DNA of 64,000 bases, taken from assembly GCA_963696015.1 (NCBI GenBank), contig CAVOJA010000006.1, forward strand, positions 523 to 64,522. Direction: 5' to 3'. Positions 21,299 to 60,411 of this stretch are shown in pieces. The notes below the pieces were generated by a model that was not told the DNA's origin, made no database searches, and saw only the letters and a program-made list of their open reading frames with translations. Origin of the DNA: an uncultured Holophagales bacterium (GTDB lineage: Bacteria > Acidobacteriota > Thermoanaerobaculia > UBA5066). The position numbers were made by a program, and so were the translations under genes. Position 1 is the first letter of the stretch. Each line of letters opens with the position of its first letter.

Positions 21299-21400
21299 CC
21301 GACGAACCGTCGCGGGGCGCTACAGGGCACCCAGCCGGGTTCAAATGTGATTCCTGTCACAAGGTTGGCCCCGATCAGGCCGCGAGACCAGAATCCGGGC

Positions 21401-24049
21401 ATGAGCCTCTACAGGGTCCTGCGCTGGTCTTCGGTCCTCGTCTGTGCGGCGCTTCTGCCTGCGGGTTCCGCCTCCGCCGGCGTCGAGCCGGTCCTCGTCG
21501 CATCCGGCCTTTTGAACCCGCTACGCGTCACGGCACCCGCGGGAGACTTCCAGAGGCTCTTCGTCGTCGAGCAGGGAGGGCGGATACGAATCGTGAAGGA
21601 CGGTCTCCTCCTCGGCGGGAGCTTTCTCGACCTCTCGGGGCGGATCAGCTCGGGAGGCGAACGGGGGCTCCTCGGTCTCGCGTTTCACCCCCTGTACCGC
21701 AGGAACGGTCGCTTCTTCGTGAACTACACCGACCCCCAGGGGAACACCGTCGTCTCGGAGTTCGCGGTTTCGTCGAATCCCGATTTCGCCACTCCAGGGA
21801 GCGAGAGGGTTCTGTTGCGCCAGACGCAGCCCTTCTCGAACCATAACGGCGGTCACCTCGCGTTCTCCCCGACCGACGGGACCCTGTATCTCGGACTCGG
21901 TGATGGCGGAAGCGGTGGCGACCCGCAGAACCTCGCGCAGAACGACGAAACCTGGCTCGGGAAGATCCTCCGGATCGACGTGGACGACAGGGATCCGGGA
22001 AAGGAGTACGCCGTCCCGGCCGACAACCCGTTCGCGGGGCGGACGAACCCGCGGCCGGAGATCTGGGCGAAGGGGCTCCGCAACCCGTGGCGATTCTCGT
22101 TCGACCGGGCGATCGGCGACCTCTGGATCGGCGACGTCGGACAGGGGGCGTGGGAGGAGATCGACTGGCAGAGCGCCTCGTCTTCGGGAGGCGAGAACTA
22201 CGGATGGCGGCGGATGGAGGGGTTCCACTGCTACGACCCGGCCTCCGGGTGCCAGACGCCGTTCCTGACGCTCCCGATGCTGGAGTACGCGCACACGGCG
22301 AATCCTTCCCGCTGCTCCGTGACGGGGGGCGTCGTCCCGCGCGGAGCGTCGGTCCCCGAGATCGCCGGGCGATATCTCTTCGCCGACTATTGCTCGGGAG
22401 AGGTCTTCAGCGTTCGCCGGCTGGGAGGCGCGGTGACGGACGCCCGAAATCACAGGGCGGAGTGGGTGCCGGCGGGGGGGCGGACGATCGGCAGCGTGTC
22501 CGACCTCGGGGAGGACGCGCGGGGGGACGTTTACGTGACCGACTCGGCCGGGGGAGAGGTCTTTCGGCTGACGACGACGACCCCCTCGGCGACGCGTCTC
22601 GTCCCGATCGTCCTCGACGCGACCGGCAGGGAGGCGTCCCGCTTCACGACCGAGCTCGTGGTCGCGAACCGCGGCGCGAGCACCGCGACGATCCGCGCGA
22701 TCTACACGCCGGCTGCTCTCTTCGGCGGCGGCGGGGGAGGGACGATTTCGGAGCTGATCGGGGCCGGCCAGCAGAAGAGCTGGACGGACGCCCTCGCGTG
22801 GCTCCGGTTCAAGGGACTCCCGATTCCCGACGCCTCACAGGGCTCGCAGGGCGGGACGCTCCGGGTCGAGCTGACGGGCCTCGTCTCCGCCGTGGACGGC
22901 GTCGTCCTCGCGCGGACGACCACCCCGCCCGGGCCGGGGCGCGCGGGGCTCGCCTATCCGGCGCCCCGGGCGCAGGATCTCGTTGCCGAGACGGCCTTCG
23001 TCTACGGCCTCCGGGAGACAGCGGCCGACCGGACGAACCTCGCTCTCCTCTCGGGCGCGACGGCCGGGACGACGACCCTGAAGATCACGCTCGTCTCGGG
23101 CGAACGGAGATTTATCCTTCCCGAGACGGTCCGTCTCGAGCCGGGCGAGTGGGTCCAGCTCGACTCGGTCCTCGCCCGCGCCCGCTTCGAGAGCGGATGG
23201 GCGGTCGTCGAGCGGCTGTCGGGGCCAGGCCCCTTCTGGGCCTACGCCGTCTTCAACGACAACGGCACGAGCGACGGCTCGTATGTCGCGCCGGTACGAC
23301 CGGTGCGTTCCGTCACGGCCCAGGTCGTTCCCGTCGTCGTCGAGACCTCCGCGTTCGAGAGCGAGCTCGTCCTGGCGAACCCCGGGGTCTCCACCGTCAC
23401 GGCGCGCCTCCTCTGGGTCGAGTCGCTCGCCACAGCCTCGCCGCGCCGGTTCGTGGCGGTCGAAGCGCTCGGTCCGGGGGAGCAGAAGATCCTCCCCGGT
23501 TTCGTCGACCGGCTGCGGACGAAGGGCCTTCCGGTCGGGGCCCGCGGCGGCTCCTACGCGGGAGCGCTCTTCGTGACGTTCGAGGACGCCTCTGGACGCG
23601 CGACCCAGGGGTACGCCGGCGCGAGGACGGCCTCGCCGGCGACCGGCGGCGGCGCCTACGGGCTCTTCACCCCGGGCGCGAGCGTGGACGACTGCGCCTT
23701 CCGCGAGGCGTGGCTCTTCGGCCTGCGCCAGGACGACGCCGTGAGGACGAACCTCGCGCTGGTGAACGCGGACATGGACGGGGGCTCGGTCACGCTCCGT
23801 TACGAGGTCTTCGAGGGGGCTGCCGGGAGGAAGGTCGGGACCTCGCGCGACGTCGTCCTCGAACCGGGGGAGTGGGTCCAGATCGACCGGGTCCTGCGCG
23901 AGTACGCGCTTCAGGAGGGCTACGCGAGGGTCTTCCGCGTCTCGGGGAACGAGCGCTTCCTCGCGTACGCCGTCGTCAACGACGGCCCGGCGGCGGGCGG
24001 GACGGGAACGGACGACGGCAGCTTCGTCCCAATGGAGGCGGCGGAATAG
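21401..24049 (+). CDS. Secreted PQQ-dependent sugar (glucose/sorbosone) dehydrogenase-like beta-propeller fused to an unassigned tandem C-terminal cassette
   Basis: Signal peptide (MSLYRVLRWSSVLVCAALLPAGSASA). Propeller motifs: ERGLLGLAFHP, FSNHNGGHLAFSPTDGTLYLGLGDGG, GKILRID, GLRNPWRFSFD, GENYGWRRMEG. From about 22595 onward there are two domains of roughly 240 aa each, also found in the proteins at 34693..37596 and 60412..63294. Confidence 0.75.
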   Translation: MSLYRVLRWSSVLVCAALLPAGSASAGVEPVLVASGLLNPLRVTAPAGDFQRLFVVEQGGRIRIVKDGLLLGGSFLDLSGRISSGGERGLLGLAFHPLYRRNGRFFVNYTDPQGNTVVSEFAVSSNPDFATPGSERVLLRQTQPFSNHNGGHLAFSPTDGTLYLGLGDGGSGGDPQNLAQNDETWLGKILRIDVDDRDPGKEYAVPADNPFAGRTNPRPEIWAKGLRNPWRFSFDRAIGDLWIGDVGQGAWEEIDWQSASSSGGENYGWRRMEGFHCYDPASGCQTPFLTLPMLEYAHTANPSRCSVTGGVVPRGASVPEIAGRYLFADYCSGEVFSVRRLGGAVTDARNHRAEWVPAGGRTIGSVSDLGEDARGDVYVTDSAGGEVFRLTTTTPSATRLVPIVLDATGREASRFTTELVVANRGASTATIRAIYTPAALFGGGGGGTISELIGAGQQKSWTDALAWLRFKGLPIPDASQGSQGGTLRVELTGLVSAVDGVVLARTTTPPGPGRAGLAYPAPRAQDLVAETAFVYGLRETAADRTNLALLSGATAGTTTLKITLVSGERRFILPETVRLEPGEWVQLDSVLARARFESGWAVVERLSGPGPFWAYAVFNDNGTSDGSYVAPVRPVRSVTAQVVPVVVETSAFESELVLANPGVSTVTARLLWVESLATASPRRFVAVEALGPGEQKILPGFVDRLRTKGLPVGARGGSYAGALFVTFEDASGRATQGYAGARTASPATGGGAYGLFTPGASVDDCAFREAWLFGLRQDDAVRTNLALVNADMDGGSVTLRYEVFEGAAGRKVGTSRDVVLEPGEWVQIDRVLREYALQEGYARVFRVSGNERFLAYAVVNDGPAAGGTGTDDGSFVPMEAAE

Positions 24050-24057
24050 GGGGGGCG

Positions 24058-24444
24058 TCAGCCGTCGCCGAGGGAGAACGAGACTTCCACGTCCTGCGAG
24101 GCGAGGAAGAAACAGGAGCGGGAAACGTCGACGAAGTCCTCCTGAAGCCTCAGGAGCCGGGCGGCGAGCTCTTTCGGCCCCGGCTGAACGATGGCCGCGA
24201 AGAACTCCGGGGCGCTCCCGGAGAAGTGGATCTCGGCAAGCCCGTCGAAGGGGGCCGCCGAGCCGGGACGGAGCTGCCATTCGGCGTTCGCGTCGACCAC
24301 GAGGGCGGCGCTGACCTCGACCCGGACCGCGCCGAGCTCCGCGCCGAGGGAGACGATCGCCTCGCCGTACTCCTGCCACTTGCGGCGGAACTCCACGACG
24401 GTCAGCTCGGGGCGGCGGCGGACGCACTGAACCCACTTGAGCAT
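24058..24444 (-). CDS. EthD-domain-like small protein
   Basis: 128 aa. The start (MLKWVQCVRRRPELTVVEFRRKWQEYGEAI) resembles EthD family N-termini. There is no competing gene on the locus. Confidence 0.5.
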   Translation of the reverse strand: MLKWVQCVRRRPELTVVEFRRKWQEYGEAIVSLGAELGAVRVEVSAALVVDANAEWQLRPGSAAPFDGLAEIHFSGSAPEFFAAIVQPGPKELAARLLRLQEDFVDVSRSCFFLASQDVEVSFSLGDG

Positions 24445-24542
24445 GATCAGCCTCCTCGGGCGGACGTGTCTGCACGGAGATCATAGCGACTCCTGCGGTG
24501 ACGGGCCGACCTCGCGAAGCGCCGTGAGCAAGGCCCTCGCGC

Positions 24543-32815: not shown

Positions 32816-34656
32816 TTCACCGCCTCCTTCCGCAGCCCTGTCCCTCGCGGGGCGACGCCGGGAATCGTCACCGGGAGCTTCCCTTCGATGGCCTCCTCTC
32901 CGTAGAGCGCGCGGACGGCAGCCGACTGGACGAGGGCCTGGGGGCCGTACCCGCAGAGGTAGGTCGTGAGCGCCGGCACGTCGCGCAGGAGGTAGGGGCT
33001 CCCGAACGAGACGGCGACGACCGGCCTGCCGGAGGCGAGGAGGGCGGCGATCGCCGCCTTCCCCTCCGCCGGAATCTCGAGCGTCCCTCGCCCGGAGCGC
33101 GGCCTCACGAAGAGGCCGACCAGGATGGCGTCTGCTGCTGCAGCCTTGTCGGCGAGGGCGGCCCCTTCTCCCGCGCAGGAGGTCGGGTCGAGGCGGACGT
33201 AATCGACCACCGCGGCCCTCCTCTTCAGCTCGGACTGGAGCGTCGTGTCGATCGCCACGGAGGCCCGGTCGTCGTGGATGGCGAGCGCGAGGAGCTTCGT
33301 GCCGGAGCGGAAGGGAAGGACCCCTTCGGCTTCGCGGACGAGCGTCAGGCCGCGCCGGGCGACCTCCTCCTCCGTCGCCTTCTGGGCGCGGGTGCCCGCC
33401 CGGGTGGAGATCTCCTGGAGAGGAATGCTCCGCTCGCGGAAGAGCCCGAGCCGTTCCTTCTCGGCGAGCACTCGCGCGACCGCCTGGTCGAGGCGGGCCT
33501 CGGGGAGGCGGCCGCTCGTCACCGCGGCGACGATCGCCGCGATGGCGACTTTCGCGTCGGGGGGCATCAGGACGACGTCGCCGCCGGCTTCGAGGACGCG
33601 CACGGCGGCCTCGCCGGTCTCGAAGTGCGCCACGACGCCTCCCATCGTCATCGCGTCGGTGAAGACGAGGCCGTCGAAGCGCATCTCCTCGCGCAGGAGC
33701 TTCGTCGTGATCCCGGGAGAGAGTGTCGCCGGAAGGGTCCTCTCCGTTTCGACTTCGGTGACGTCCTCGGTGAAGTCGTGCGTTCTCGGCGGGCTCTGGA
33801 GGATGGGGACCGGCGTCGCGTCGAGGGCAGGCACGGACAGGTGCGCGGTCATGACGCTCCGGGCTCCGGCGTCGAGGCCGGCCCGGAACGGGACGAGCTC
33901 GACCGCGTCGAGGCGTGCACGGTCGAAGGCGAGAACGGGGAGGGAGCGGTGCGAGTCGGTGGCGGTGTCGCCGTGCCCGGGGAAGTGCTTCAGCGTCGCG
34001 AGGACGCCGCCGTCCTGTAGTCCTTTCACGGTCGCCGCGACGAAGCGGCCGACGGCGACCGGCTCCTCGCCGAAGCTCCGCACGTTGATGACGGGGTTGT
34101 CGGGGTTGTTGTTCACGTCGGCGACCGGGGCGAAGACGACGTGGATCCCGATGGCGCGTGCCGCCTCGGCCGTCCCGCGGGCGCGACGCGTGGCGAGGTC
34201 GAGGTCTCCCGCCGCCGCGACGGCCATCGCCGATGGTCCGAAGACGAGGTCGGGGAGACGCATACCGGGTCCTGCCTCGAGGTCGGCGGCCACGAGGAGC
34301 GGCACCTTCGCCTTCGCCGCGAGGCGGTGGTTCAGGTCGGCCGTCTCGAGCGGGGTCGAGGCGAACCAGATGACGCCGCCGATTCCCTCTTCGGAGACGA
34401 GCCGCGCGAGGTCGAAGTATTCCGGGTCGTCCTCCGCGCGGTAGACGCCGCGGGAGCCGACCATGACGACCTGCCCCGCCTTCTCGCGAAGGGAAAGGGA
34501 GGCGACGGAGGGGGCGCGGACGGGGAGTGCGGAGGTCGCCGGGGCGGTCGCGGGCCCGGACGTGGTACAGGCGCCGACGAGGACGGAGAAGGTGAGGAAG
34601 AGAGGGCCGCCGGAGGTTCGGCGGCCCGTTGCGTGGGTTTCCTGTACGTGCGGCAC
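32812..34656 (-). CDS. nagZ: Glycoside hydrolase family 3 beta-N-acetylhexosaminidase (two-domain, YbbD/NagZ-like), predicted lipoprotein
   Basis: Contains KHFPGHGDTATDSH, the GH3 NagZ signature. The N-terminus has a lipobox-like LVGAC. Its stop overlaps the start of the downstream fusion gene by 4 nt. Confidence 0.85.
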   Translation of the reverse strand: MPHVQETHATGRRTSGGPLFLTFSVLVGACTTSGPATAPATSALPVRAPSVASLSLREKAGQVVMVGSRGVYRAEDDPEYFDLARLVSEEGIGGVIWFASTPLETADLNHRLAAKAKVPLLVAADLEAGPGMRLPDLVFGPSAMAVAAAGDLDLATRRARGTAEAARAIGIHVVFAPVADVNNNPDNPVINVRSFGEEPVAVGRFVAATVKGLQDGGVLATLKHFPGHGDTATDSHRSLPVLAFDRARLDAVELVPFRAGLDAGARSVMTAHLSVPALDATPVPILQSPPRTHDFTEDVTEVETERTLPATLSPGITTKLLREEMRFDGLVFTDAMTMGGVVAHFETGEAAVRVLEAGGDVVLMPPDAKVAIAAIVAAVTSGRLPEARLDQAVARVLAEKERLGLFRERSIPLQEISTRAGTRAQKATEEEVARRGLTLVREAEGVLPFRSGTKLLALAIHDDRASVAIDTTLQSELKRRAAVVDYVRLDPTSCAGEGAALADKAAAADAILVGLFVRPRSGRGTLEIPAEGKAAIAALLASGRPVVAVSFGSPYLLRDVPALTTYLCGYGPQALVQSAAVRALYGEEAIEGKLPVTIPGVAPRGTGLRKEAVK

Positions 34657-34692
34657 GGCGGCCGAATCATAGGCGCGGCGGCCGCCGCCCGC

Positions 34693-37596
34693 TCACTGAC
34701 TGACGACCATCGGAACGTAGCTCCCGTCATTCGTCCCGCTGTCCCTGTCTTTTCCGTCGACGACGGTCGCGTAAGCGAAGAAGGCGTCGAAGCCCGAGAC
34801 GACCGTCATGTGGACGGACCCGTTCGTCGTGCTGCCGAGGACCCCGTCCAGCTGTTTCCACTGCCCTGGTGCGAGCGGCCCGACCGTCGTTTCGGAGACC
34901 CTCTGGCCCGTCGTGCCGCTGTAGACCTCGACGCGGACGGCGATCGCCTCGTTGAAAAGGCCGGCGTTGACGATGGCGAGATTCGATCTCGCGGCGGAGT
35001 TCTGCTGGAGGCCGAAGACCCACGCGTCGACGGCCGACTCCGCCCCCGCGAGGCTCGTGTAGAAGAGGCCGTACTGCCCGCCGATCGGTGCGGGCGCGCC
35101 GGTCCGCGCCCCGGACAGGCCGACCAGGAGGGACGTGTCGCTCGCGTAGGCGACCGAGAGCGCGCCGGCGTAGCCGCCGCCGCGCGGGCCGATCGTCGCG
35201 CCGGCGGCGCGGAGCTCCTGGAGGATGTCGGGGAAGATGGCCTGCTCGAAGGGGTTCAGCTCGACGTAGAAGAGGCCGGTCGAATCGCCGCTTCCGGCGA
35301 GCGATTCGACGTACTCGAGGAAGGCGTAGCCCGGCTCCTCCGAGAGGTTCGAGACGACGAGCTCGCTCCGGAACGTGGAAGTCTCGACGAGGACGGGGAC
35401 GGTCCCGAAGGCGTCGACGGTCTCGGTCGGAACCGCCGGCACGTACGAGCCATCCTGAGTGAGGTTGTCGTTGAAGACGGCGTACGCCGTGTATGGTTCG
35501 GTCCCGGACGTCTGCTCGATGAGGATCCAGCCGTCGACGTAGCCCGCGAGCTCGAGGATCCGGTCGATCTGCGTCCACTGCCCCGGCCCGAGCTCGATGT
35601 CCGATTCGATGTACTTGTACTCCGTCCCGTCGCCCTTGACGATGTTGACCTGGAGCCTGATCGTCCCGGCCGTCCCGGCGTTCGCGAGGGCGAGATTGCT
35701 CCGGTCGGCGGCGTCCTGGCGGAGTCCGACGATGACCGACTCGCCGTTCAGGAGCTGCGACGGCGTCAGAGCGGGGTACGAGAGGCCCGCGCGGCCGTTC
35801 CCGGAGGGCGTCGTCGTCCTCGCCCCGGCGAAGCCCGCGTCCTCGGAGGAAAGGCCCTCGAACCTCACGCGGAGCGTTCCGCCCTGGTTCGACCCGCCGC
35901 CCGGGATCGCGAGGCCCTTGCCCCGGAGGTAGGCGATGGCGTCGGGGAGGATGAGCTGCCGACCCGGCGCGAGCGTCTCGGTGACCGTCCCGCTCCCGGC
36001 CCCGCCCCCCAGGATGAGCGAGCCGGTGTAGGTCATCCGGACCGTGGCCGTCGAGGTCCCGCGGTTCGTCAGCGCGAGCTCGGAGCTGAAGCGGGCCCCT
36101 CCCTGGCCGGCGACGGCGAGGACGATCGGGACGAAGAGCGTCTGGGTCGCGGTCCCGCCGCCGGTCGGCTTGCCCGCGACGGTGACGGTCCGCTGCGTCT
36201 GGTTCGACGAGCCGCCGGCCGAGACGGCGAGGGTGACTGTGTAGCTGCCGGGGTTCGCGTACGTGTGCGACGGGCTCTTCGCCGTGGAGGTGTTCGACCC
36301 GCCGGAGGAGGGGTCGCCGAAGTTCCAGGAGTAGGTCGTCGGGCTCCCCCGCGAGGCGTCGACGAAGCCGACGGGCTGGCCGGCGAGCGGGCTGACCGGC
36401 GTCCACGAGAAGTCGGCGGTCACGGGCGTGCCTCCTCCCCCGCCCGAGAGGACGCGGAGGACCGCCCGCGGGTCGTGACCCACGATGAACCTGTCGTTCG
36501 AGGGCTTCCCCGCCTGCCAGGGCTGGTCCTCGGCGCCGTTCACGGTGACGATGGCGCCGACGTAGTACTCCCCGGCGGCCGTCCCGGCCGGGACGGAAAG
36601 TGGCGCGGTGTAGGCCCCTTCACCGTCGACGGGGACCGAGCCGACGGTGCCGTCGACGAGGACGACGTCTCCGGGTTGCGGGTACTGCCGTCCGCTGCTC
36701 TTCGGCCAGGCGTAGAAGGTGACGACGACGTTCGAGGCGGCCTGGTTGCCGACGTTCTGGAGCGTCCACTGGTCGGCGGTGAACGCCTCGCCCGGCGCGA
36801 CGGAGCTCTTCGAGATCGTCGCGTACTCCTGGGCGTACTTGTCGTTACCGTAGACGAGCGGGTAGATCGCGACGTCGAGGAGCGAGCCCGACCGCGAGGG
36901 GTATTCGGTTCTCACCGTCTTCGAGTCGATCCGCGTCACCCAGCGGGCCGCGTCGTCATTGGCATAGTTCATCACGGAGAAGCTGTTCGCACCCTGGTAC
37001 TCGAGCTGGAAGATGTGGTGCAGGCCGAGGGTGTGCCCTACCTCGTGGAGGACCGTCGCCTGGACCATCGCGAGTCCGCCGCGCTGGTCGTTCCCCGGAC
37101 TGAACCAGTCGGGGGTCCACCCTTCCCCGAAGCCCGCGTTGATGACGACGTCGGTCTCGGTGAAGGGGCCGCACCCCGTCGCAACGAACTCGCGGCACTC
37201 GTTGAAGTTCCCGAAGTTGTCGTCCGGGAACATGACGGCCCGACCGAAGAGGCCCGGTTCCATCTCGAAGCCGTAAAGCGCGTCGGACTCGGCCGGGGAG
37301 ATGAACGTGTTCACCTCGTTGATGCCGTTCCGCGAGCCGAGGGTGCTGCTCGAGTCGATCCTCACGTTGAAGAGGTTCACGTACCGGTTCCACTCGACGA
37401 GCATGTCGGCGGTGGCCTGCTTCTCGGCGGCGGAGGCGTTGCGTCCCCGGACCCAGTAGTCGCGGACGATCCCCGTCTGGTAGCCGCACCAGCACCCTTC
37501 GTCGTCGACCCAGCGGGCGTTGGCGCTCGCCTGGGCGAAGACGGGAGCGGGGGCGAGAAGCAGGAGGGCGGCGAGGGCGCGAAGCGTCGTCTTCAC
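34693..37596 (-). CDS. Secreted metzincin zinc metalloprotease with a PKD domain and the unassigned tandem C-terminal cassette
   Basis: Signal peptide (MKTTLRALAALLLLAPAPVFAQA). HExxHxxGxxH motif (VLHEVGHTLGLHH) with a downstream SVMNY (Met-turn). PKD-like segment (FSWTPVSPLAGQPVGFVDAS...WNFGD...HTYANPGSYTVTLAVS). Two cassette domains occupy about 34696-36140. Confidence 0.75.
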   Translation of the reverse strand: MKTTLRALAALLLLAPAPVFAQASANARWVDDEGCWCGYQTGIVRDYWVRGRNASAAEKQATADMLVEWNRYVNLFNVRIDSSSTLGSRNGINEVNTFISPAESDALYGFEMEPGLFGRAVMFPDDNFGNFNECREFVATGCGPFTETDVVINAGFGEGWTPDWFSPGNDQRGGLAMVQATVLHEVGHTLGLHHIFQLEYQGANSFSVMNYANDDAARWVTRIDSKTVRTEYPSRSGSLLDVAIYPLVYGNDKYAQEYATISKSSVAPGEAFTADQWTLQNVGNQAASNVVVTFYAWPKSSGRQYPQPGDVVLVDGTVGSVPVDGEGAYTAPLSVPAGTAAGEYYVGAIVTVNGAEDQPWQAGKPSNDRFIVGHDPRAVLRVLSGGGGGTPVTADFSWTPVSPLAGQPVGFVDASRGSPTTYSWNFGDPSSGGSNTSTAKSPSHTYANPGSYTVTLAVSAGGSSNQTQRTVTVAGKPTGGGTATQTLFVPIVLAVAGQGGARFSSELALTNRGTSTATVRMTYTGSLILGGGAGSGTVTETLAPGRQLILPDAIAYLRGKGLAIPGGGSNQGGTLRVRFEGLSSEDAGFAGARTTTPSGNGRAGLSYPALTPSQLLNGESVIVGLRQDAADRSNLALANAGTAGTIRLQVNIVKGDGTEYKYIESDIELGPGQWTQIDRILELAGYVDGWILIEQTSGTEPYTAYAVFNDNLTQDGSYVPAVPTETVDAFGTVPVLVETSTFRSELVVSNLSEEPGYAFLEYVESLAGSGDSTGLFYVELNPFEQAIFPDILQELRAAGATIGPRGGGYAGALSVAYASDTSLLVGLSGARTGAPAPIGGQYGLFYTSLAGAESAVDAWVFGLQQNSAARSNLAIVNAGLFNEAIAVRVEVYSGTTGQRVSETTVGPLAPGQWKQLDGVLGSTTNGSVHMTVVSGFDAFFAYATVVDGKDRDSGTNDGSYVPMVVSQ

Positions 37597-37600
37597 GATC

Positions 37601-38356
37601 TCACCTCTCCGCCGGCTTCAGGAGGCTCGCGACGTGTTCCTTCAGCGAGGTCACCGTCACCGTCGCCCCGTCGATGCGGACCGGCGTCGCGTTCCGCGGC
37701 TTCGTCACCCGCACGGGAACCTTCGTGACGACGTTCCCGGCGGCGTCGCGGTAGACCGGCTCGGGTATCTTCTTCGGGCTGGCGGCCGGCGGCCGCATCG
37801 CCATCTCCCGATCGGAGACGAGGCGGACGATGCCGGGGAGGGCGGCGGGCTCCGAGGGGCGTCCTCGGCGGAGTCGGCCCGAGGTATCCCGTTCGAGCCT
37901 GCGTCCCTCGACGTCGATCAGGAGCGTCTCGCCGCTCGCCTCCTCGATCACCTCCCGGAACATCCCCTGCTCGGTCCCGACGACCGGGGAAGCAAAGCGG
38001 TGATCGTTGCCGTAGGCCGAAACGACGTAGGTCCCGCCCGCTTCGAAGCTCGGGACGTGGGAGAGCTGGATCGACCTGCCGTCGAGCGTCCCGCCCGCGA
38101 CGCGGACGACCCGCCGGGTCACGCCCTCCCCTTTCCACGTCTCGCGCACGTCGAACGTGTACTCGGTCCAGATCATCTTCTTCCCTTCCCCCCAGACGGC
38201 TCGGGTCGAGACGACCTTTCCGACGAAGACCGCCTCGCCCTGGGTGAACACCTCGTCGAGGGGCACCTCGCGCGAGAGCGCGGCCGCGGGCGGCGCGGAA
38301 ATGAAAGCGAGGACGAGAGAGCTCGTCCAAGGAGAGAAACAGAGGCGTCGCATCAT
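37601..38356 (-). CDS. Secreted hypothetical protein co-transcribed with the metzincin
   Basis: ATG at 38356 with AAAGGAGGGA upstream. Signal peptide (MMRRLCFSPWTSSLVLAFISAPPAAA). It ends 4 nt before the metzincin start. I recognise no family. Confidence 0.6.
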   Translation of the reverse strand: MMRRLCFSPWTSSLVLAFISAPPAAALSREVPLDEVFTQGEAVFVGKVVSTRAVWGEGKKMIWTEYTFDVRETWKGEGVTRRVVRVAGGTLDGRSIQLSHVPSFEAGGTYVVSAYGNDHRFASPVVGTEQGMFREVIEEASGETLLIDVEGRRLERDTSGRLRRGRPSEPAALPGIVRLVSDREMAMRPPAASPKKIPEPVYRDAAGNVVTKVPVRVTKPRNATPVRIDGATVTVTSLKEHVASLLKPAER

Positions 38357-38545
38357 GACGTCCCTCCTTTCCGGGGGTTCATTTGTGTTCTGAGCCAGAC
38401 AGTCTAGGACCGCGGGCGCCCCCCGTCGGTGTCTCCGCTCATGTTGCGGGTCGCGGCCCGTCGCGCCGGAGGCGGGGAAGGGCGGAGGCATGGAACGACG
38501 GGGGGCGCCGCCAACCCACGGAGGACGAAAGGTACGAACGGCCGG

Positions 38546-54152: not shown

Positions 54153-55497
54153 ATGTCTCTGTGCCGCGCGTCCTTTCGTATCTCCATTCCTGGTGTCCTC
54201 GCCGCGAGCGTCTTCGCGTTACCGGCCGTCGCCGTACCCCCGGCGACCGACTTGCCGGACACCCCGGCGAGCGTCGAGGTTCTCGTCGCCGAGGCGCTGG
54301 ACAAGAGCCCCGCCCTCGCCGCCGCCCGGGCCGAGGTTGCCGCCGCGCGCGAGCGCATCGCTCCCGCCGGCACGCTCCCCGACCCGATGCTCTCGCTCGG
54401 GTACGAGAACGACGGAACCTCCTTCTCCCTCGGCGAGGAGCCGATGACCCGCCTCTCGTTCATGGCCGAGCAGGAGATCCCGTGGCCCGGGAAGCTCCAC
54501 GCCGCAACGAAGGTGGCCGCGGCGGACGTGGAGGTCGTCGAGGCGCGCCTCGCGCGCGTCCGCCTCTCCGTCGAAGCCGCCGTCCGCAGGGCGGCCGCGC
54601 GCCTCCTCGAGGCGCGCGAGCTCGAGGCCGTGACGCGCGACCAGGGGAAGACCTGGGAGAGGATCGAGGCCGTCGCGCGGAACCGGTACGCCGCCGGCCT
54701 GGGGACGCAGCAGGACGTCCTGCGCGCGCAGGCCGAGCGGACGCGCCTCCTCCAGCAGGCGCGCCGCGACGAGGCCGCCGGGCGGATCGCCCTCGCCGAC
54801 TCCGACGCCTTCTCCTCCGCGGCCCCGACGAGCCGGTCTCCCTCGCGGGGAGCCTCGCCGGCGCCCCTCCCGTCGCGCCCGAGGCGGGCGCGGAACGCGC
54901 GCGCGCCGAGGAGGAGAGCCCCGAGCTCGCCCTCGTGAGGAGGGTCGCGGCGCGCGAGGCCCTTGCGATCGACCTCGCGAAGCGGGACCGCGCCCCGGAC
55001 CTCGTCGCGTCGGCCGGCTACATGAATCGCGGCTCCCTTCCCCTGATGTGGAGCGTCGGGCTCGGGGTCTCCGTCCCGCTCTTCTCCTCGCGCAGGCAGG
55101 AGCCGCGGGTCCGCGAAGTGAGGCCCGCCTCGCCGCTGCGAAGGCGGCGGAGGGCGACGTGGACTCCCTTCTCCTCGCGAGGACCGAAGAGAGGCTCGCC
55201 CTCCTCGACCAGCTCGCCGAGGAGGCGCGCCTCGACCGGGAGTCGCTCCTCGTCCAGGACCGGCTCGCCGTCGAGGCCGCGCTTGCGAGCGACGGCACGG
55301 GCACGGTCCCGTTCGCCACCGTCCTCGAGGCGATCGGCACCGAGTTCTCCGACCGGCGCGCGTCCCTCGCGCGCCTCGCCGTCTTTCGGACGGCCCAGGC
55401 GGACCTCCTCGAGCTGAGCCTCGAGGGTGCCGCCGCGATGACCCCTTTCGCCGCCCCCTCCGCCCCGGCCGCGATGAGCGCCGGCGGCGGGATGTGA
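54153..55497 (+). pseudogene. TolC-family outer membrane factor (CusC/CzcC-like) with two single-base frameshifts
   Basis: An OMF-like sequence continues across three frames. Frame 1 reads MSLCRASF...EAAGRIALA. Frame 2 reads LRRLLLRGPDEPVSL...WSVGLGVSVPLFSSRRQEPRVRE. Frame 3 reads EARLAAAKAAEGDVDSLLLART...LELSLEG. The switches fall at about 54798-54802 and 55117-55120, and each is restored by adding one base. Confidence 0.8.
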
Positions 55498-55508
55498 GGA
55501 GAGACCCC

Positions 55509-56984
55509 ATGAACCGCACGAAGACGAAACCGACCCGCGCCGCGCTCCTCGCGGTCCTGCTCCTCACGCTCGCCGTTCCGGCGGTCCTCCTTGTCGGCTG
55601 CGGCGGCGGCGAGCCCCCGGCCTCCGCCGGGACGAAGACGTACGTCGGCCCCATGCACCCGGAGATCGTGAAGGACCACGAAGGGGACTGCCCGATCTGC
55701 GGGATGCGGCTCGTCCTGAAGGAGTCCGGCCCGGCGACGACCCCCGCCGCCCACGAGGTCTGGACCTGCCCGATGCACCCGGAGATCGTGAAGGACCGGA
55801 AGGGGAGCTGCCCGATCTGCGGGATGGACCTCGTGAAGAAGGAGGAGGGCGCGCCGGGAGGCGGCACGGCCGAGGCGGGCGTTCCCGGCTTCGCGACCGT
55901 GACGATCGACGCCCGCAAACGCCAGCTCCTCCCGCTGAAGACGGCGAAGGGGGGGCGGGGAACGTTCGGGACCGGGATCCGGACGGTCGGCCGGGTCACC
56001 TCCGACGAGCGGCGGGTCCGCCACGTCCACACCCGGTTCGAGGCTCACGTCGAGCACGTCGCCGCCGACTTCACGGGCAAGTACGTGAGGAAGGGCGAGG
56101 TCCTCGCCCACGTCTACAGCCCCGAGCTCTTCGCGACCCAGCAGGAGCTCTTCCTCGCGCTCCGGGCCGTCCGCGCCCTCGGGCCGTCGGCCGACGCCAC
56201 GGCGCGCGAGGGCGCCGAGCGCCTCCTCGACGCGACCCGGCAGCGCCTCCGTCTCTGGGACGTGGCGCAGAAGGACATCGTGGCCCTCGAGGCGCGGTGT
56301 GAGCCGCTCCGGAGCTTCACGATCTACGCGCCCACCTCCGGCGACGTGACGGCGCGGACGGCCTTCCACGGCATGAAGGTCATGCCGGCCGACACGCTCT
56401 TCGACATCGTCGACCTCTCGTCCGTCTGGGTCCTCGCCGACGTCTACGAGTCGGAGCTCCCGCGCTTGAAGGTGGGGCAGACGGGGCGAATGACGCTCGC
56501 CTACCGGCCGGGGCAGAGCTGGACGGGGAAGGTGACCTACGTCTCCCCCTCGCTCGACGAGAAGACGCGGACGGCGAAGGTCCGCCTCGAGTTCGCGAAC
56601 CCCCGGGAGGAGCTGAAGCCCGAGATGTTCGCGGACGTCGTCCTCGAGAGCGCGCCGCGGACGGCGCTGAAGGTGCCGGACGACGCCGTGCTCGACAGCG
56701 GGACGCGGAAGGTCGTCTTCGTCGCGAAGGGGGAAGGGGTCCTCGAGCCGCGGGAGGTGGAGGTCGGCGAGCAGGGGGGCGGGTCGTGGGAGATCCTCTC
56801 GAGCCTCGGGGAACGGGAGGAGATCGCTCTCGGGGCGAGCTTCCTCGTCGACTCCGAATCACGGCTCGCATCGGCTCTCGCGGGAATGCGGGACGGCGCG
56901 ACGCCGGCGACGGGTCACGAAGGCCACGCGGCGCCTGCGCCCGCGCCGTCGCCGTCCGTGCCGGACACCGGGCACGCGCACTGA
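55509..56984 (+). CDS. cusB: Efflux RND periplasmic adaptor (CusB-like) with two N-terminal heavy-metal-binding domains, predicted lipoprotein
   Basis: Lipobox (LLVGC). Two copies of the MHPEIVKD..G.CPICGM.LV motif. The membrane-fusion-protein core follows (SGDVTARTAFHGMKVMP, FANPREELKPEMFADV). Confidence 0.85.
   Translation: MNRTKTKPTRAALLAVLLLTLAVPAVLLVGCGGGEPPASAGTKTYVGPMHPEIVKDHEGDCPICGMRLVLKESGPATTPAAHEVWTCPMHPEIVKDRKGSCPICGMDLVKKEEGAPGGGTAEAGVPGFATVTIDARKRQLLPLKTAKGGRGTFGTGIRTVGRVTSDERRVRHVHTRFEAHVEHVAADFTGKYVRKGEVLAHVYSPELFATQQELFLALRAVRALGPSADATAREGAERLLDATRQRLRLWDVAQKDIVALEARCEPLRSFTIYAPTSGDVTARTAFHGMKVMPADTLFDIVDLSSVWVLADVYESELPRLKVGQTGRMTLAYRPGQSWTGKVTYVSPSLDEKTRTAKVRLEFANPREELKPEMFADVVLESAPRTALKVPDDAVLDSGTRKVVFVAKGEGVLEPREVEVGEQGGGSWEILSSLGEREEIALGASFLVDSESRLASALAGMRDGATPATGHEGHAAPAPAPSPSVPDTGHAH
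55653..55826 (+). repeat. Two 54-nt direct repeats (55653-55706 and 55773-55826, period 120 nt) encoding the duplicated metal-binding motif in cusB
   Basis: The copies differ at 6 of 54 positions by hand alignment. All differences lie in three adjacent codons (cac gaa ggg gac versus cgg aag ggg agc). Confidence 0.8.
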
Positions 56985-56994
56985 GGAGACGGCA

Positions 56995-59900
56995 GTGATC
57001 AGGCGAATCATCCACTTCTCGGCGGAGAACAAGTTCCTCGTCCTCGCCCTCTGGGCCGTCGCGGTCCTCCTCGCCTTCCGCGCGCTCCGGAACGTCCCGC
57101 TCGACGCGATCCCCGACCTCTCCGACACCCAGGTCATCGTCCTCTCGAGGTGGGACCGGAGCCCCGACATCCTCGAGGACCAGGTGACCTACCCGATCGT
57201 CAGCGCCCTCCTCGGGGCGCCGAAGGTGAAGACGATCCGGGGCTTCTCAGACTTCGGCTACTCGTTCGTCTACGTCATCTTCGAGGACGGGACGGACCTC
57301 TACTGGGCCCGCTCGCGGGTCCTCGAGTACCTTTCGAAGATTCAGGGGAGCCTTCCGCAGGGCGTGAAGACGGAGATCGGCCCCGACGCGACGGGCGTCG
57401 GGTGGGTCTACCAGTACGCCCTCGTCGACGAGACGGGGCAGACCTCCCTCGACGCGCTCCGCTCCGACCAGGACTGGTTCCTCCGCTACCAGCTCCAGTC
57501 GGTGCCGGGCGTCGCGGAGGTCGCGACCGTCGGCGGGATGGCGCGGCAGTACCAGGTCACCGTCGACCCGAACCGCCTCGCGGCCTACGGCATCTCCCTC
57601 GAGGCCGTTTCGGACGCGCTCCGGAGGAGCAACGACGAGGTCGGGGGGCGGCTCATCGAGATCTCCGGCCGCGAGCACATGGTGCGCGGCCGCGGGTACC
57701 TCCGGGGATCGGCGGACATCGAGAAGGTCGTCGTGAAGACCGACGAGCGCGGGACGCCGGTGACGATCAAGGACGTCGGCAGCGTCGCCCTCGGGCCGAC
57801 CTGCGCCGCGGGCTCGCCGAGCTGGACGGGAAGGGGGAGACCGTCGGCGGGATCGTCGTCATGCGTTCCGGCGAGAACGCCCTCCACGTCATCGAGCGGG
57901 TCAAGGCGCGGATCGACGAGATCCGGCCGTCGCTTCCGACCGGCGTGAAGCTCGTGACGACGTACGACCGCTCGACGCTCATCGAGTCGGCGATCGACAA
58001 CCTGAAGGGGAAGCTCGTCGAGGAGATCGTCATCGTCTCCATCGTCATCCTGATCTTCCTGTGGCACGTGCCGAGCGCGCTCGTCCCGATCCTGACGATT
58101 CCGGTCTCGGTCCTCCTCGCCTTCATCCCGCTCCACCTGATGGGGATCACGGTCGCCATCATGTCGCTCGGCGGTATCGCCATCTCCATCGGTGTCCTGG
58201 TCGACGGCGCGATCGTCGAGGTGGAGAACGCCTACAAGAAGCTGCAGATCTGGAACGACACGGGACGGAAGGGGGACTTCCACGCCATCCGCCTCGAGGC
58301 GCTGATGGAGGTTGGCCCGTCGGTCTTCTTCTCGCTCCTCGTCATCGCCGTCTCGTTCCTCCCGATCTTCACGCTCGTCGACCAGGAGGGGCGCCTCTTC
58401 ACGCCGCTCGCCTGGTCGAAGAACTTCGCGATGGCCCTCGCGGCCGTCCTCGCGATCACGCTCGACCCGGCGATGCGGATGCTCTTCGCCCGGATGGACC
58501 CCTTCCGGTTCGGCTTCGCGCACGGCGGGGAGAGCGCCCTGGTGCGGCTCGTCCGGCTCCCGGCGCGCCTCGCCGAGAAGGCCGTCAACGCGGTCGCCGT
58601 CGGGACCTACCACGCCGAGGAGAAGCACCCCGTCTCGAAGGTCCTCTTCCGGCTCTACGACCCGGTCTGCCGCGGCGTCCTGCGCCACCCGAAAAAGGTC
58701 GTCGCGGTCTCGCTCCTCGTCCTCGTCTCGACCGTGCCGGTCTACCTCTCCCTCGGTTCGGAGTTCATGCCTCCGCTCCACGAGGGGACGATCCTCTACA
58801 TGCCGACGACGCTCCCCGGCATCTCCGTCACCGAGGCCGCGAAGCTCCTCCAGACGCAGGACCGCGTCCTCTCGACGTTCCCCGAGGTGGAGCGCGTCTT
58901 CGGAAAGGCGGGGCGCGCCGAGACGTCGACCGACCCGGCACCCCTCTCGATGATGGAGACGACGGTCATCCTGAAGTCGGAGCACGAGTGGCGGCCGAAG
59001 GAGCGCTGGTTCTCCCCGTGGGCACCGGAGTGGCTGTCGGCGGTCCTCCGGCACGTCTGGCGCGACCGGATTACGTACGAGGAGCTCATCGGCGAGATGG
59101 ATCGCGCGCTGAAGATCCCGGGGACGACGAATGCCTGGACGATGCCGTTCAAGGGGCGGATCGACATGCTCTCGACGGGGATACGGACGCCGATCGGCGT
59201 GAAGGTCTTCGGCTCGGACCTCGCCGAGATCGAGCGGATCGGCGCCGAGGTCGAGGCGGCGGTGAGGACGCTCCCGGCGACGCGCTCGGCCTTCGCCGAG
59301 AGGGTCGCGGGAGGCACCTTCGTCGACTTCGAGCTGAATCGCGACGCGCTCGCCCGCTACGGCCTCACCGCCGCCGACGCGAACATGGTCATCATGACGG
59401 CGATCGGCGGCGAGACCGTGACGACGACCGTCGAGGGGCGGGCGCGCTACAGCGTCAACGTCCGCTACCCGCGCGCGCTGCGCGAGGACCTCTCGAGCCT
59501 CTCGCGCGTCCTCGTCCCGACGATGTCGGGGGCTCAGGTGCCGCTCGGGCAGCTGGCCGACATCCGCCTCGTCACCGGGCCGTCGATGATCCGCAACGAG
59601 AACGGGCTCCTGTCGGGCTACGTCTACGTCGACTTCGACACGTCGAAGGAGGACGTCGGGTGATTCGTCGAGAAGGCGAAGACCGCCGTCGCGGAGCGGG
59701 TGACCATCCCCACCGGGTACTCCCTCGTCTGGAGCGGCCAGTGGGAGAACATGGTGCGGGTGCGGGAACGGCTCGAGGTCGTCATCCCCGTCACCCTCGT
59801 CCTGATCTTCCTCCTCATGTACGCGAACACGAAGTCGGTGGCGAAGACGCTCATCATTGTCCTGGCCGTCCCGTTCTCGGTCGTCGGCGCCGTCTGGTAC

Positions 59901-60326
59901 CTCTGGCTCCTCGACTACAACATGTCGATCGCGGTCTGGGTCGGGATGATCGCCCTCATGGGCCTCGACGCCGAGACGGGGATCTTCATGCTCCTGTTCC
60001 TCGACCTCGCCCACGACGAGGCGAAGAAGAAGGGGCTCCTCCGAAACCTCCCCGACCTCGTCGAGGCGATCGTCCACGGCACCGTGAAGCGGATCCGGCC
60101 GAAGGCGATGACGGTCCTCTCGGCGTTCTTCGGCCTCCTGCCGATCATGTGGTCGACGGGCGTCGGGGCCGACATGATGAAGCGGATCGCCGCGCCGATG
60201 GTCGGAGGTCTCGTCACGTCGTTCGCCCTCGAGCTCCTCGTCGACCCGGCCGTCTACCTGCTCTGGAAGAAACGGGAGCTGCCGGGGCCGGAAGCGCCCG
60301 GAGAGGAGGCCGCCGCGATCGCGTGA
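56995..60326 (+). pseudogene. cusA: CusA-type heavy-metal efflux RND permease, disrupted by one single-base frameshift and one in-frame TGA
   Basis: Strong CusA-like sequence throughout (PLDAIPDLSDTQVIV, VYVIFEDGTDLYWARSRVLEYL, GPDATGVGWVYQYALVD, IMSLGGIAISIGVLVDGAIV, RIRPKAMTV). The frame changes at about 57796-57800 (VALGP / DLRRGLAELDGKGE). An in-frame TGA lies at 59661-59663 (SKEDVG*FVEKAKTAV). Confidence 0.9.
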
Positions 60327-60411
60327 GAAACTCGGTACTGAAGACACTCCGGATGCAGGTCACCGGTCGGGCCCACCCTCGTCTGGTCCCGCCCGGGGCC
60401 CGGGAGGTTCC

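Follow-up and report, generated by a model that had tools for sequence, protein, structure and literature searches.

The window analysed here is a stretch of 64,000 nucleotides from the contig CAVOJA010000006.1 (assembly GCA_963696015.1, positions 523 to 64,522 of the forward strand) of an uncultured Holophagales bacterium, and within it lie three genes for secreted proteins, denoted A, B and C, whose N-terminal heads are dissimilar and whose C-termini carry versions of the same cassette. An earlier note on this DNA had drawn attention to the cassette and could not place it in any named family. Our analyses show that it belongs to a genuine, large and uncurated family among the beta-sandwich accessory modules of secreted proteins; the best explanation of the cassette itself is an autonomous, non-catalytic extracellular module of ~480 residues.

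Three carrier genes and their cassettes

Gene A (21401..24049, +) encodes a signal peptide, a dehydrogenase head, a Thr/Pro linker and then the cassette. Its full open reading frame (ORF) spans 21347..24049 (+), with translation most plausibly beginning at the ATG at 21401, from which a clean Sec signal peptide results (21401..21478, +; the N-terminus reads MSLYRVLRWSSVLVCAALLPAGSASA); the head (~21539..22543, +; residues 65-399) matches the GSDH/PQQ-type dehydrogenases of PF07995 with E 6.5e-34. Gene B lies on the other strand (34693..37596, -) and encodes a signal peptide (~37534..37596, -), the motif HEVGHTLGLHH (37015..37047, -), which fits the metzincin pattern HExxHxxGxxH, a PKD domain (36178..36384, -; E 5e-14) and then the cassette; the metzincin hidden Markov models (HMMs) of Pfam and NCBIfam match it weakly only. 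Gene C (60412..63294, +) encodes a signal peptide (~60412..60468, +), a head of ~470 residues, a Gly-rich linker and a divergent cassette. A scan of the whole of protein C returned zero Pfam or NCBIfam matches, and its label as a BNR protein comes from a single copy of the Asp-box-like motif SRDGGDTW (60787..60810, +). The earlier note had named the heads as a PQQ-type sugar dehydrogenase, a metzincin with a PKD domain and a BNR/Asp-box protein; the first two descriptions stand, and the third comes down to that one motif. As it had also claimed, the heads are unrelated by sequence, with no mutual similarity in BLASTP.

Each cassette consists of two tandem units of ~240-245 residues, and each unit is divided here into two sandwiches (a and b in unit 1, a' and b' in unit 2) on grounds given with the predicted fold. 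The cassette of A, which had been placed at 22595..24049, extends over residues ~412-900 and thus over 22580..24046 (+), with unit 1 at 22580..23311 (residues 412-655; a 22580..22936, b 22937..23311) and unit 2 at 23312..24046 (residues 656-900; a' 23312..23650, b' 23651..24046), ending at the stop codon. Unit 1 of B lies at 35422..36153 (-; residues 482-725; a 35797..36153, b 35422..35796) and unit 2 at 34696..35421 (-; residues 726-967; a' 35080..35421, b' 34696..35079). The units of C are found at 61876..62586 (+; residues 489-725; a 61876..62199, b 62200..62586) and 62587..63291 (+; residues 726-960; a' 62587..62895, b' 62896..63291). None of the other ORFs of the 64-kb window contains the cassette.

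Homology between the copies

By sequence comparison, the cassettes of A, B and C are homologous, their similarity being far beyond chance. Those of A (residues 412-900) and B (482-967) are 44% identical over 494 residues in BLASTP (E 1e-110), and the resemblance is positional: the first units are 48% identical to each other (E 4e-70) and the second units 41%, the corresponding figures being 38% for the two units within A and 33% for those within B. HMMs of unit 1 (d1) and unit 2 (d2), built from homologues outside the window only, sort the units in the same way, the first units scoring higher with d1 (302 bits against 166 with d2 in A, 339 against 205 in B) and the second units with d2 (313 bits against 201 with d1 in A, 269 against 153 in B). 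The cassette of C is ~25% identical to those of A and B and is recognised by the same independent models, with a whole-protein E of 2.9e-24 and, against d1, domain E values of 2e-11 for C1 and 4e-12 for C2. Its two units are 31% identical (E 1e-13), each is closer to the other than to any unit of A or B, and both score slightly higher on d1 than on d2. The C type forms its own subfamily of 41 database hits, all Thermoanaerobaculia-type, and may represent either an early-diverged version of the cassette or an independently duplicated one.

The proposal of a shared two-domain module, which the earlier note had made conditional on formal alignment, is therefore borne out, directly between A and B and through window-free models for C. 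Its finer points call for qualification. First units resemble first units, and the motif VESLA is found only in the second units, in A and B, but C1 and C2 are nearest to each other and VESLA is absent from C2; similarly, the picture of a single inherited cassette describes the A/B type with its positional orthology but not C, a separate subfamily with both units d1-like.

Family size and taxonomic range

At least 495 relatives came from a word-indexed search, and in none of them is the cassette region assigned to a Pfam family. An exhaustive search with a single-unit HMM, run on the representatives of sequence clusters at 50% identity, matched 7,346 entries at E<=1e-3 and, at the stricter E<=1e-30, 2,004. 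Among contigs sampled at one genome per species there were at least 570 matching stretches, of which 79 loci were retrieved for the genomic analyses. All 79 come from metagenome-assembled genomes (MAGs) and none from a cultured organism; all but four are labelled Holophagales, Thermoanaerobaculia, Acidobacteriota or Terriglobia. Several loci hold two to three cassette genes (up to three in 13 kb), and individual MAGs hold at least five to six; no relatives turned up when viral contigs were scanned. As judged from these matches, the cassette constitutes an extensive domain family of Acidobacteriota that is not curated, represented in Thermoanaerobaculia, Holophagales and Terriglobia-type MAGs.

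The four exceptional loci (L057, L059, L066 and L072) belong to three MAGs labelled 'uncultured Acidimicrobiia' (contigs CAWBTP01, CAWEPG01 and CAWBAT01; 49-57% G+C) and contain bona fide cassettes on SBBP, laminin-G-like, M10 metzincin and FG-GAP heads; either their taxonomy is mislabelled or the module extends past Acidobacteriota. A partial match on a 1.8-kb contig labelled Thermoplasmata archaeon was probably mis-binned.

With respect to known families, the full window proteins, 27 units and 50 cassettes gave nothing above the curated thresholds of Pfam-A and NCBIfam 20.0, and four profiles, for the cassette, the unit and each of the sandwiches a and b, found no meaningful match among PDB sequences, in agreement with the earlier note, which would have yielded its case to a well-characterised family. 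The sub-threshold strays were DUF5719 (PF18986; two of 27 units at E 0.015 and one of 50 cassettes at E 0.006), PLipase_C_C (one of 27 units) and CARDB (PF07705; one of 27 units at E 0.052 and, among the six window units, unit 2 of B at residues 865-933, with 18.0 bits against a cutoff of 22.7). A search of the literature on the module, DUF5719 and Thermoanaerobaculia secretion found nothing relevant.

Architecture and fusion partners

The pairing of the units is practically fixed: exactly two were found in 118 of the 120 first homologues and in the 133 further representatives, with a combined tally of 239 out of 253, the exceptions being mostly fragments and split matches, and in this respect the pair is inherited as one unit, as had been supposed. 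The location within the protein is freer. Of the 133 representatives, 107 have the cassette at the very C-terminus, 11 immediately behind the signal peptide and 15 in the interior of the protein, and there are standalone genes, consisting of a signal peptide and the cassette, that are complete, monocistronic and set in housekeeping surroundings. The claim that carriers end in the module thus holds for A, B, C and the 107 representatives but not for the other 26 or the standalone forms.

The heads, in turn, are as diverse as the earlier note had suspected of these exoenzymes: 49 proteins together contain domains from 59 Pfam and 42 NCBIfam families. The heads are of kinds typical for surface or secreted proteins and include repeats and folds (BNR/sortilin propellers, internalin-like LRR, PKD, CARDB, SBBP, cadherin-like, TIG, FG-GAP, Kelch and BACON), enzymes (FGE-sulfatase, S8, M10 and M28 peptidases, GH5, GH39, GSDH and ExeM/NucH nuclease), the F510_1955 family and the NCBIfam 'choice-of-anchor' families Z and Q. 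Domain shuffling, as read from these predicted architectures, has placed the cassette on many Sec-secreted enzymes and adhesin-like proteins. In homologues from outside the window with an N-terminal cassette (the P0060, P0066 and P0064 types), the C-terminal part is often Gly_rich_2 (PF21722) or BACON, and a subfamily of 782-788 residues with an N-terminal cassette has in common a C-terminal region of ~275 residues without family assignment. The NCBIfam matches to GldK and GldJ fall on heads of the FGE-sulfatase type and not on the machinery of type IX secretion (T9SS).

The positions bear on the possibility that the cassette is a cargo tag, recognised in its folded form by an outer-membrane export or attachment machine in the manner of the T9SS C-terminal domain (CTD) and perhaps later removed or covalently linked. 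Many paralogues per genome, unrelated heads and a single lineage are the classic signature of a sorting signal; ~80% of the copies are C-terminal and end 1-5 residues from the end of the protein, and 'choice-of-anchor' heads elsewhere bear PEP-CTERM, LPXTG or T9SS tags. Against this, the option is weakened by the ~20% of copies that are N-terminal or internal and by the standalone forms, and a cassette of ~480 residues is five to six times the size of known tags. Sorting models are also unmatched: Por_Secre_tail (TIGR04183/PF18962) has no match even at E<=5 among the 27 units and 50 cassettes, and NCBIfam gave no match to PEP-CTERM or to other sorting signals. The C-termini of the window proteins read ...DGSFVPMEAAE*, ...DGSYVPMVVSQ* and ...SAALAARD*, and the translations of A, B and C end without a hydrophobic transmembrane helix or basic tail. 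No conserved machinery genes stand beside the cassette genes at the 79 loci, and Acidobacteriota are not known to have a T9SS. We regard a cargo tag as quite unlikely.

Predicted fold and conserved residues

The AlphaFold2 model of the 489-residue A cassette, computed with a 50-sequence alignment, is all-beta, with a mean predicted local distance difference test score (pLDDT) of 95 and a predicted template modelling score (pTM) of 0.93; unit 1 of A modelled alone has a pLDDT of 93.8 and a pTM of 0.90. Given the high pTM, the four sandwiches would be packed as one rigid body and not as beads on a string. In the model, each unit has ~18 strands in two blocks, with one short helix inserted per block, and since a Foldseek search with one unit matches paired sandwich domains, the unit is read as two beta-sandwiches, a and b. 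The ~240-residue domain of the earlier note is thus correctly seen as the repeating element, but it is itself composite. Profile-profile comparisons of a with b give one register in all four combinations, the best with a probability of 69% and E 4e-5 over 63 columns, and this register aligns 'F-[ST]-S-E-L-x-L-x-N-x-G ... tL-x-pG-x-Q' with 'D-R-S-N-L-A-L-x-N-x-G ... tL-x-PG-x-W-x-Q'. Such agreement is suggestive, not proof, of a tetrad a-b-a'-b' of four anciently related sandwiches.

Ten residues are invariant in all of the 27 unit copies compared, those of C among them (N30, G92, R112, G120, G123, R151, N153, G174, Q193 and D232, in the numbering of A unit 1). Six of them are polar (N30, R112, R151, N153, Q193 and D232), and polar invariants are present in all four sandwiches; strand periodicity suggests that R151, N153 and A155 point away from the sandwich core. 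No Cys, His, Ser or Lys is invariant across the 27 copies, which counts against catalysis or isopeptide chemistry. The cassettes as a whole are without cysteines and mildly acidic, with a median pI of ~5. The most conserved stretch of the module is the motif of sandwich b, seen for example at 23000..23060 of the window (GLRETAADRTNLAL). The sandwich b profile also matches, weakly, a repeat of the phage short tail fibre gp92 (PDB 9zd7; 'GLxNxxxARxNLGL', E 0.036, four repeated sub-hits), a resemblance in 'GLxxxxxARxNLxL' that is probably a coincidence at the level of the motif.

Structural matches to the complete cassette are generic. Foldseek searches of PDB and BFVD retrieved multi-sandwich arrays with TM-scores of 0.1-0.2, among them complement C3/C4/C5, alpha-2-macroglobulin, transglutaminase, PorU, pilins and phage tail proteins; the single unit matched the TG2 C-terminal barrel pair, VPS26/arrestin and Fc pairs, with E>=5e-4 and TM<0.2. 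The only domain-sized fold match in PDB with the whole cassette as the query was 1NC7 (TM1070), with a probability of 1.00, a root-mean-square deviation of 3.4 A and a TM-score of 0.70 when normalised to the 116-residue target. Two other candidates were rejected: a domain with an intramolecular isopeptide or ester bond, prompted by a match to the BcpA pilin, is ruled out by the lack of a conserved Lys or His, and an outer-membrane beta-barrel or autotransporter is ruled out by the short, sandwich-like strands and the absence of matches to outer-membrane protein folds.

The rigid body suggested by the pTM of 0.93 invites another explanation, in which cassettes oligomerise into an S-layer-like lattice or sheath that shows the heads, the standalone proteins being its bulk subunit, or, more simply, in which the cassette acts as a passive spacer. 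A copy number that is strictly fixed and the existence of secreted standalone cassettes are in line with a scaffold. TM1070 is a tetramer, and homo- or hetero-tetramers have been proposed for the domains of ASRAH, the superfamily defined around it (de Souza, Iyer and Aravind 2009, PMC2739507). Oligomerisation of the cassette itself is hypothetical, however; a passive spacer would call for an extra anchor, whereas most cassettes are followed immediately by the stop codon, and polar invariants common to all four sandwich types suggest a ligand site over lattice contacts. A scaffold or stalk seems to us very improbable.

Gene neighbourhood

No cassette-specific neighbour gene was found at the 79 loci, in the window or around one standalone cassette gene that was inspected, the surroundings being housekeeping genes only. 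In the window, the neighbours are ordinary chromosomal genes, such as those for RuvB, sodium symporters, a nitrilase-type hydrolase, a GH3 enzyme, arginine decarboxylase and CusBA. The composition of the window, 71% G+C, generates many long spurious antisense ORFs, and the real frames were picked by a G+C content at third codon positions (GC3) > 0.85. Very long ORFs (500-1195 residues; Arg/Gly/Pro-rich) that overlap real genes in another frame or on the other strand, for example at 22087..24486 (+), 22835..24484 (-), 34141..37728 (+) and 58061..60916 (+), are artefacts of composition.

Three sets of neighbours deserve mention. Upstream of B, on the same strand and separated by a 4-nt gap, 37601..38491 (-) encodes a secreted protein of ~250 residues without a Pfam match; seven other MAG loci of the metzincin-PKD-cassette type have a homologue (41-81% identity) directly upstream and in the same orientation, and an eighth locus (L044) has a partial match just downstream. 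The gene is probably co-transcribed with B, and its product may act as an inhibitor, a chaperone or an accessory protein for the protease, tied to the head and not to the cassette. Just downstream of A, 24061..24480 (-) is an ORF of 140 residues without a Pfam match that has homologues in the same position beside A-orthologous genes at ~7 loci; its conservation looks like synteny of close relatives and not like a functional link. Directly upstream of C, 55122..60326 (+) includes a CusB-like membrane-fusion protein with two heavy-metal-binding domains, and the ORF 59664..60323 (+) after the CusB-like gene looks like the C-terminal part of an RND pump of the CusA/AcrB type; neither of the two has any relation to the cassette.

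Discussion

We infer, tentatively and with less than even confidence, that the cassette binds a glycan polymer and thereby retains the attached protein on the surface or matrix of its producer. The results establish the homology of the copies, their fold class, the fixed pairing, the promiscuous fusion, the freedom of position and the restriction to a lineage; that a ligand is bound, of what nature it is and that the protein is retained are inferences from these. The carbohydrate polymer would be held in clefts lined by the invariant Gln and Asp and by outward-facing invariant residues of strand 2, the candidates being R-x-N in 'DRSNLALxN' and S/T-E in 'TSELxLxN'; once bound, it would keep the fused protein on the producer's own surface or in its exopolysaccharide matrix, a role akin to that of the SLH or CWB2 triplets of Gram-positive bacteria. 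A module that folds on its own, is used at either end of a protein or alone, comes as a fixed pair, preserves polar invariants and is confined to one lineage on unrelated heads fits such binding and retention. The earlier note had suggested surface anchoring, sorting or substrate targeting as the function; the observed promiscuity of the fusions and the positional freedom of the cassette lead us to favour an autonomous module of this kind over a secretion tag.

A related explanation keeps the binding and changes the target: as a carbohydrate-binding module (CBM), the tetrad would bind an environmental polysaccharide of plant, fungal or bacterial origin and concentrate the enzyme on its substrate. 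The beta-sandwich fold, the resemblance to TM1070/ASRAH, itself a predicted sugar binder, and the presence of glycoside hydrolases among the heads (GH5, GH39 and the F510_1955 family) would all suit a CBM, and a GH3 gene adjoins B. Most heads, though, are not carbohydrate-active (peptidases, dehydrogenase, nuclease, LRR, Kelch, FG-GAP and cadherin repeats), so that a single conserved ligand site would need to suit every one of them; the cassette is, moreover, restricted to a lineage with many paralogues per genome, whereas CBMs usually cross phyla with carbohydrate-active enzymes. The Pfam CBM_* families have no match in the window proteins, the 27 units or the 50 cassettes. We consider substrate targeting unlikely.

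Several observations weigh against glycan binding and retention. The invariant polar residues could instead form a buried structural network or contacts between sandwiches, and the mild acidity of the cassettes gives no hint of the binding of an anionic polymer. No glycosyltransferase gene or exopolysaccharide locus is a conserved neighbour at the 79 loci, in the window or at the standalone gene. Pfam models of CBM, ASRT, SLH and other binding families are unmatched, and the strays to DUF5719, PLipase_C_C and CARDB stay below threshold. The match to TM1070 is one Foldseek hit, which falls outside the top 50 with unit 1 alone as the query, and the Asn in this position is not specific to ASRAH, since CARDB-like Ig folds also commonly have an N-x-G turn behind strand 2.

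Whatever the ligand, the family is of consequence for the biology of its hosts. Acidobacteriota are among the most abundant bacteria of soils, sediments and wastewater, the lineages concerned here are almost wholly uncultured, and one module marks a large and varied share of their secreted proteome, from proteases, glycosidases, nucleases and oxidoreductases to adhesin-like repeats. With thousands of members and no Pfam or NCBIfam entry, the family merits a curated model, which would let annotators flag the secreted and surface proteome of these MAGs. The identity of the ligand would tell whether the exoenzymes stay associated with the cell or are released, a distinction central to the turnover of extracellular polymers and to 'public goods' models; if the binding is true, the cassette would also be a new display scaffold.

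Comparison with known systems

Among known folds, the broadest likeness is to the generic Ig-like sandwiches of CARDB and other E-set domains (PF07705), macroglobulins and transglutaminase C-terminal barrels. CARDB has the 'LxLxNxG' strand-turn motif in common with the cassette, and the C3/A2M macroglobulin arrays and the TG2 barrel pair are the top multi-domain Foldseek matches; their TM-scores, however, are just 0.1-0.2, and the packing a-b-a'-b' of the model is without a solved counterpart.

A closer structural and mechanistic analogue, in our view the closest, is the ASRAH superfamily (ASRT/TM1070, 1NC7; Pfam ASRT/DUF1362, PF07100), defined around TM1070, which is the orthologue in Thermotoga of the sensory rhodopsin transducer of Anabaena (PMC2739507). 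The ASRAH fold is an eight-stranded sandwich of two four-strand repeats, in which a nearly invariant Asn closes strand 2 and the ligand cleft is formed by strand-2 residues and the dimer interface; the domains 'always occur either as dyads or as tetrads', the secreted examples being tetrads fused to amidases of Chloroflexi and dyads in a surface lipoprotein of actinobacterial origin, and sugar binding has been predicted by the authors (PMC2739507). The cassette resembles this system in having beta-sandwiches of ~110-120 residues, conserved polar residues in strand 2, an Asn at the end of that strand (N30 after strand E21-30 in sandwich a; 'NLALxNxG' in b), fusion to secreted enzymes, and an arrangement of two units with two sandwiches each that parallels the dyads and tetrads. 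On the other hand, the Pfam ASRT model has no match to the cassette at E<=5-10, neither the SHEshChhN signature nor the Trp of strand 1 is conserved ('AW..GL' occurs in sandwich b of unit 2 only), the sandwiches of the cassette have extra strands and a helix insert, and the host phylum and the repertoire of partners are different. The cassette is possibly a new branch of ASRAH-like tetrads, and we treat the modelled likeness as a lead for membership and not as an assignment.

In its distribution, the cassette recalls the T9SS CTD (Por_Secre_tail, TIGR04183/PF18962), likewise an Ig-like sandwich at the C-terminus of unrelated secreted proteins of one phylum, with many cargo proteins per genome encoded by dispersed genes. 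The CTD is a single domain of 70-100 residues and strictly C-terminal, whereas the cassette has four sandwiches and ~480 residues and lies elsewhere in 26 of the 133 representatives.

The triplets of SLH (PF00395) and CWB2 (PF04122, Clostridioides difficile) are tandem modules of fixed number that bind a lineage-specific cell-surface polysaccharide. Like the cassette, they fold autonomously and are found N- or C-terminally on many paralogous surface proteins with unrelated heads. Their folds are unrelated to that of the cassette (SLH is helical and CWB2 alpha/beta toprim-like), there is no sequence similarity, their hosts are Gram-positive, and ligand binding by the cassette is putative. By analogy with these systems, the cassette could be the universal tag of a lineage-specific surface-display system of Thermoanaerobaculia/Holophagae-type Acidobacteriota, in which a lectin-like tetrad would tether many different exoenzymes and adhesins per cell either to a glycan of the envelope or capsule dedicated to this role or to a lattice formed by standalone cassette proteins. 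We find this larger picture rather doubtful, but if true it would be of considerably greater interest: the cassette would then be the functional equivalent of SLH, CWB2 and the T9SS CTD, with a fold unrelated to theirs and able to work at both termini of a protein.

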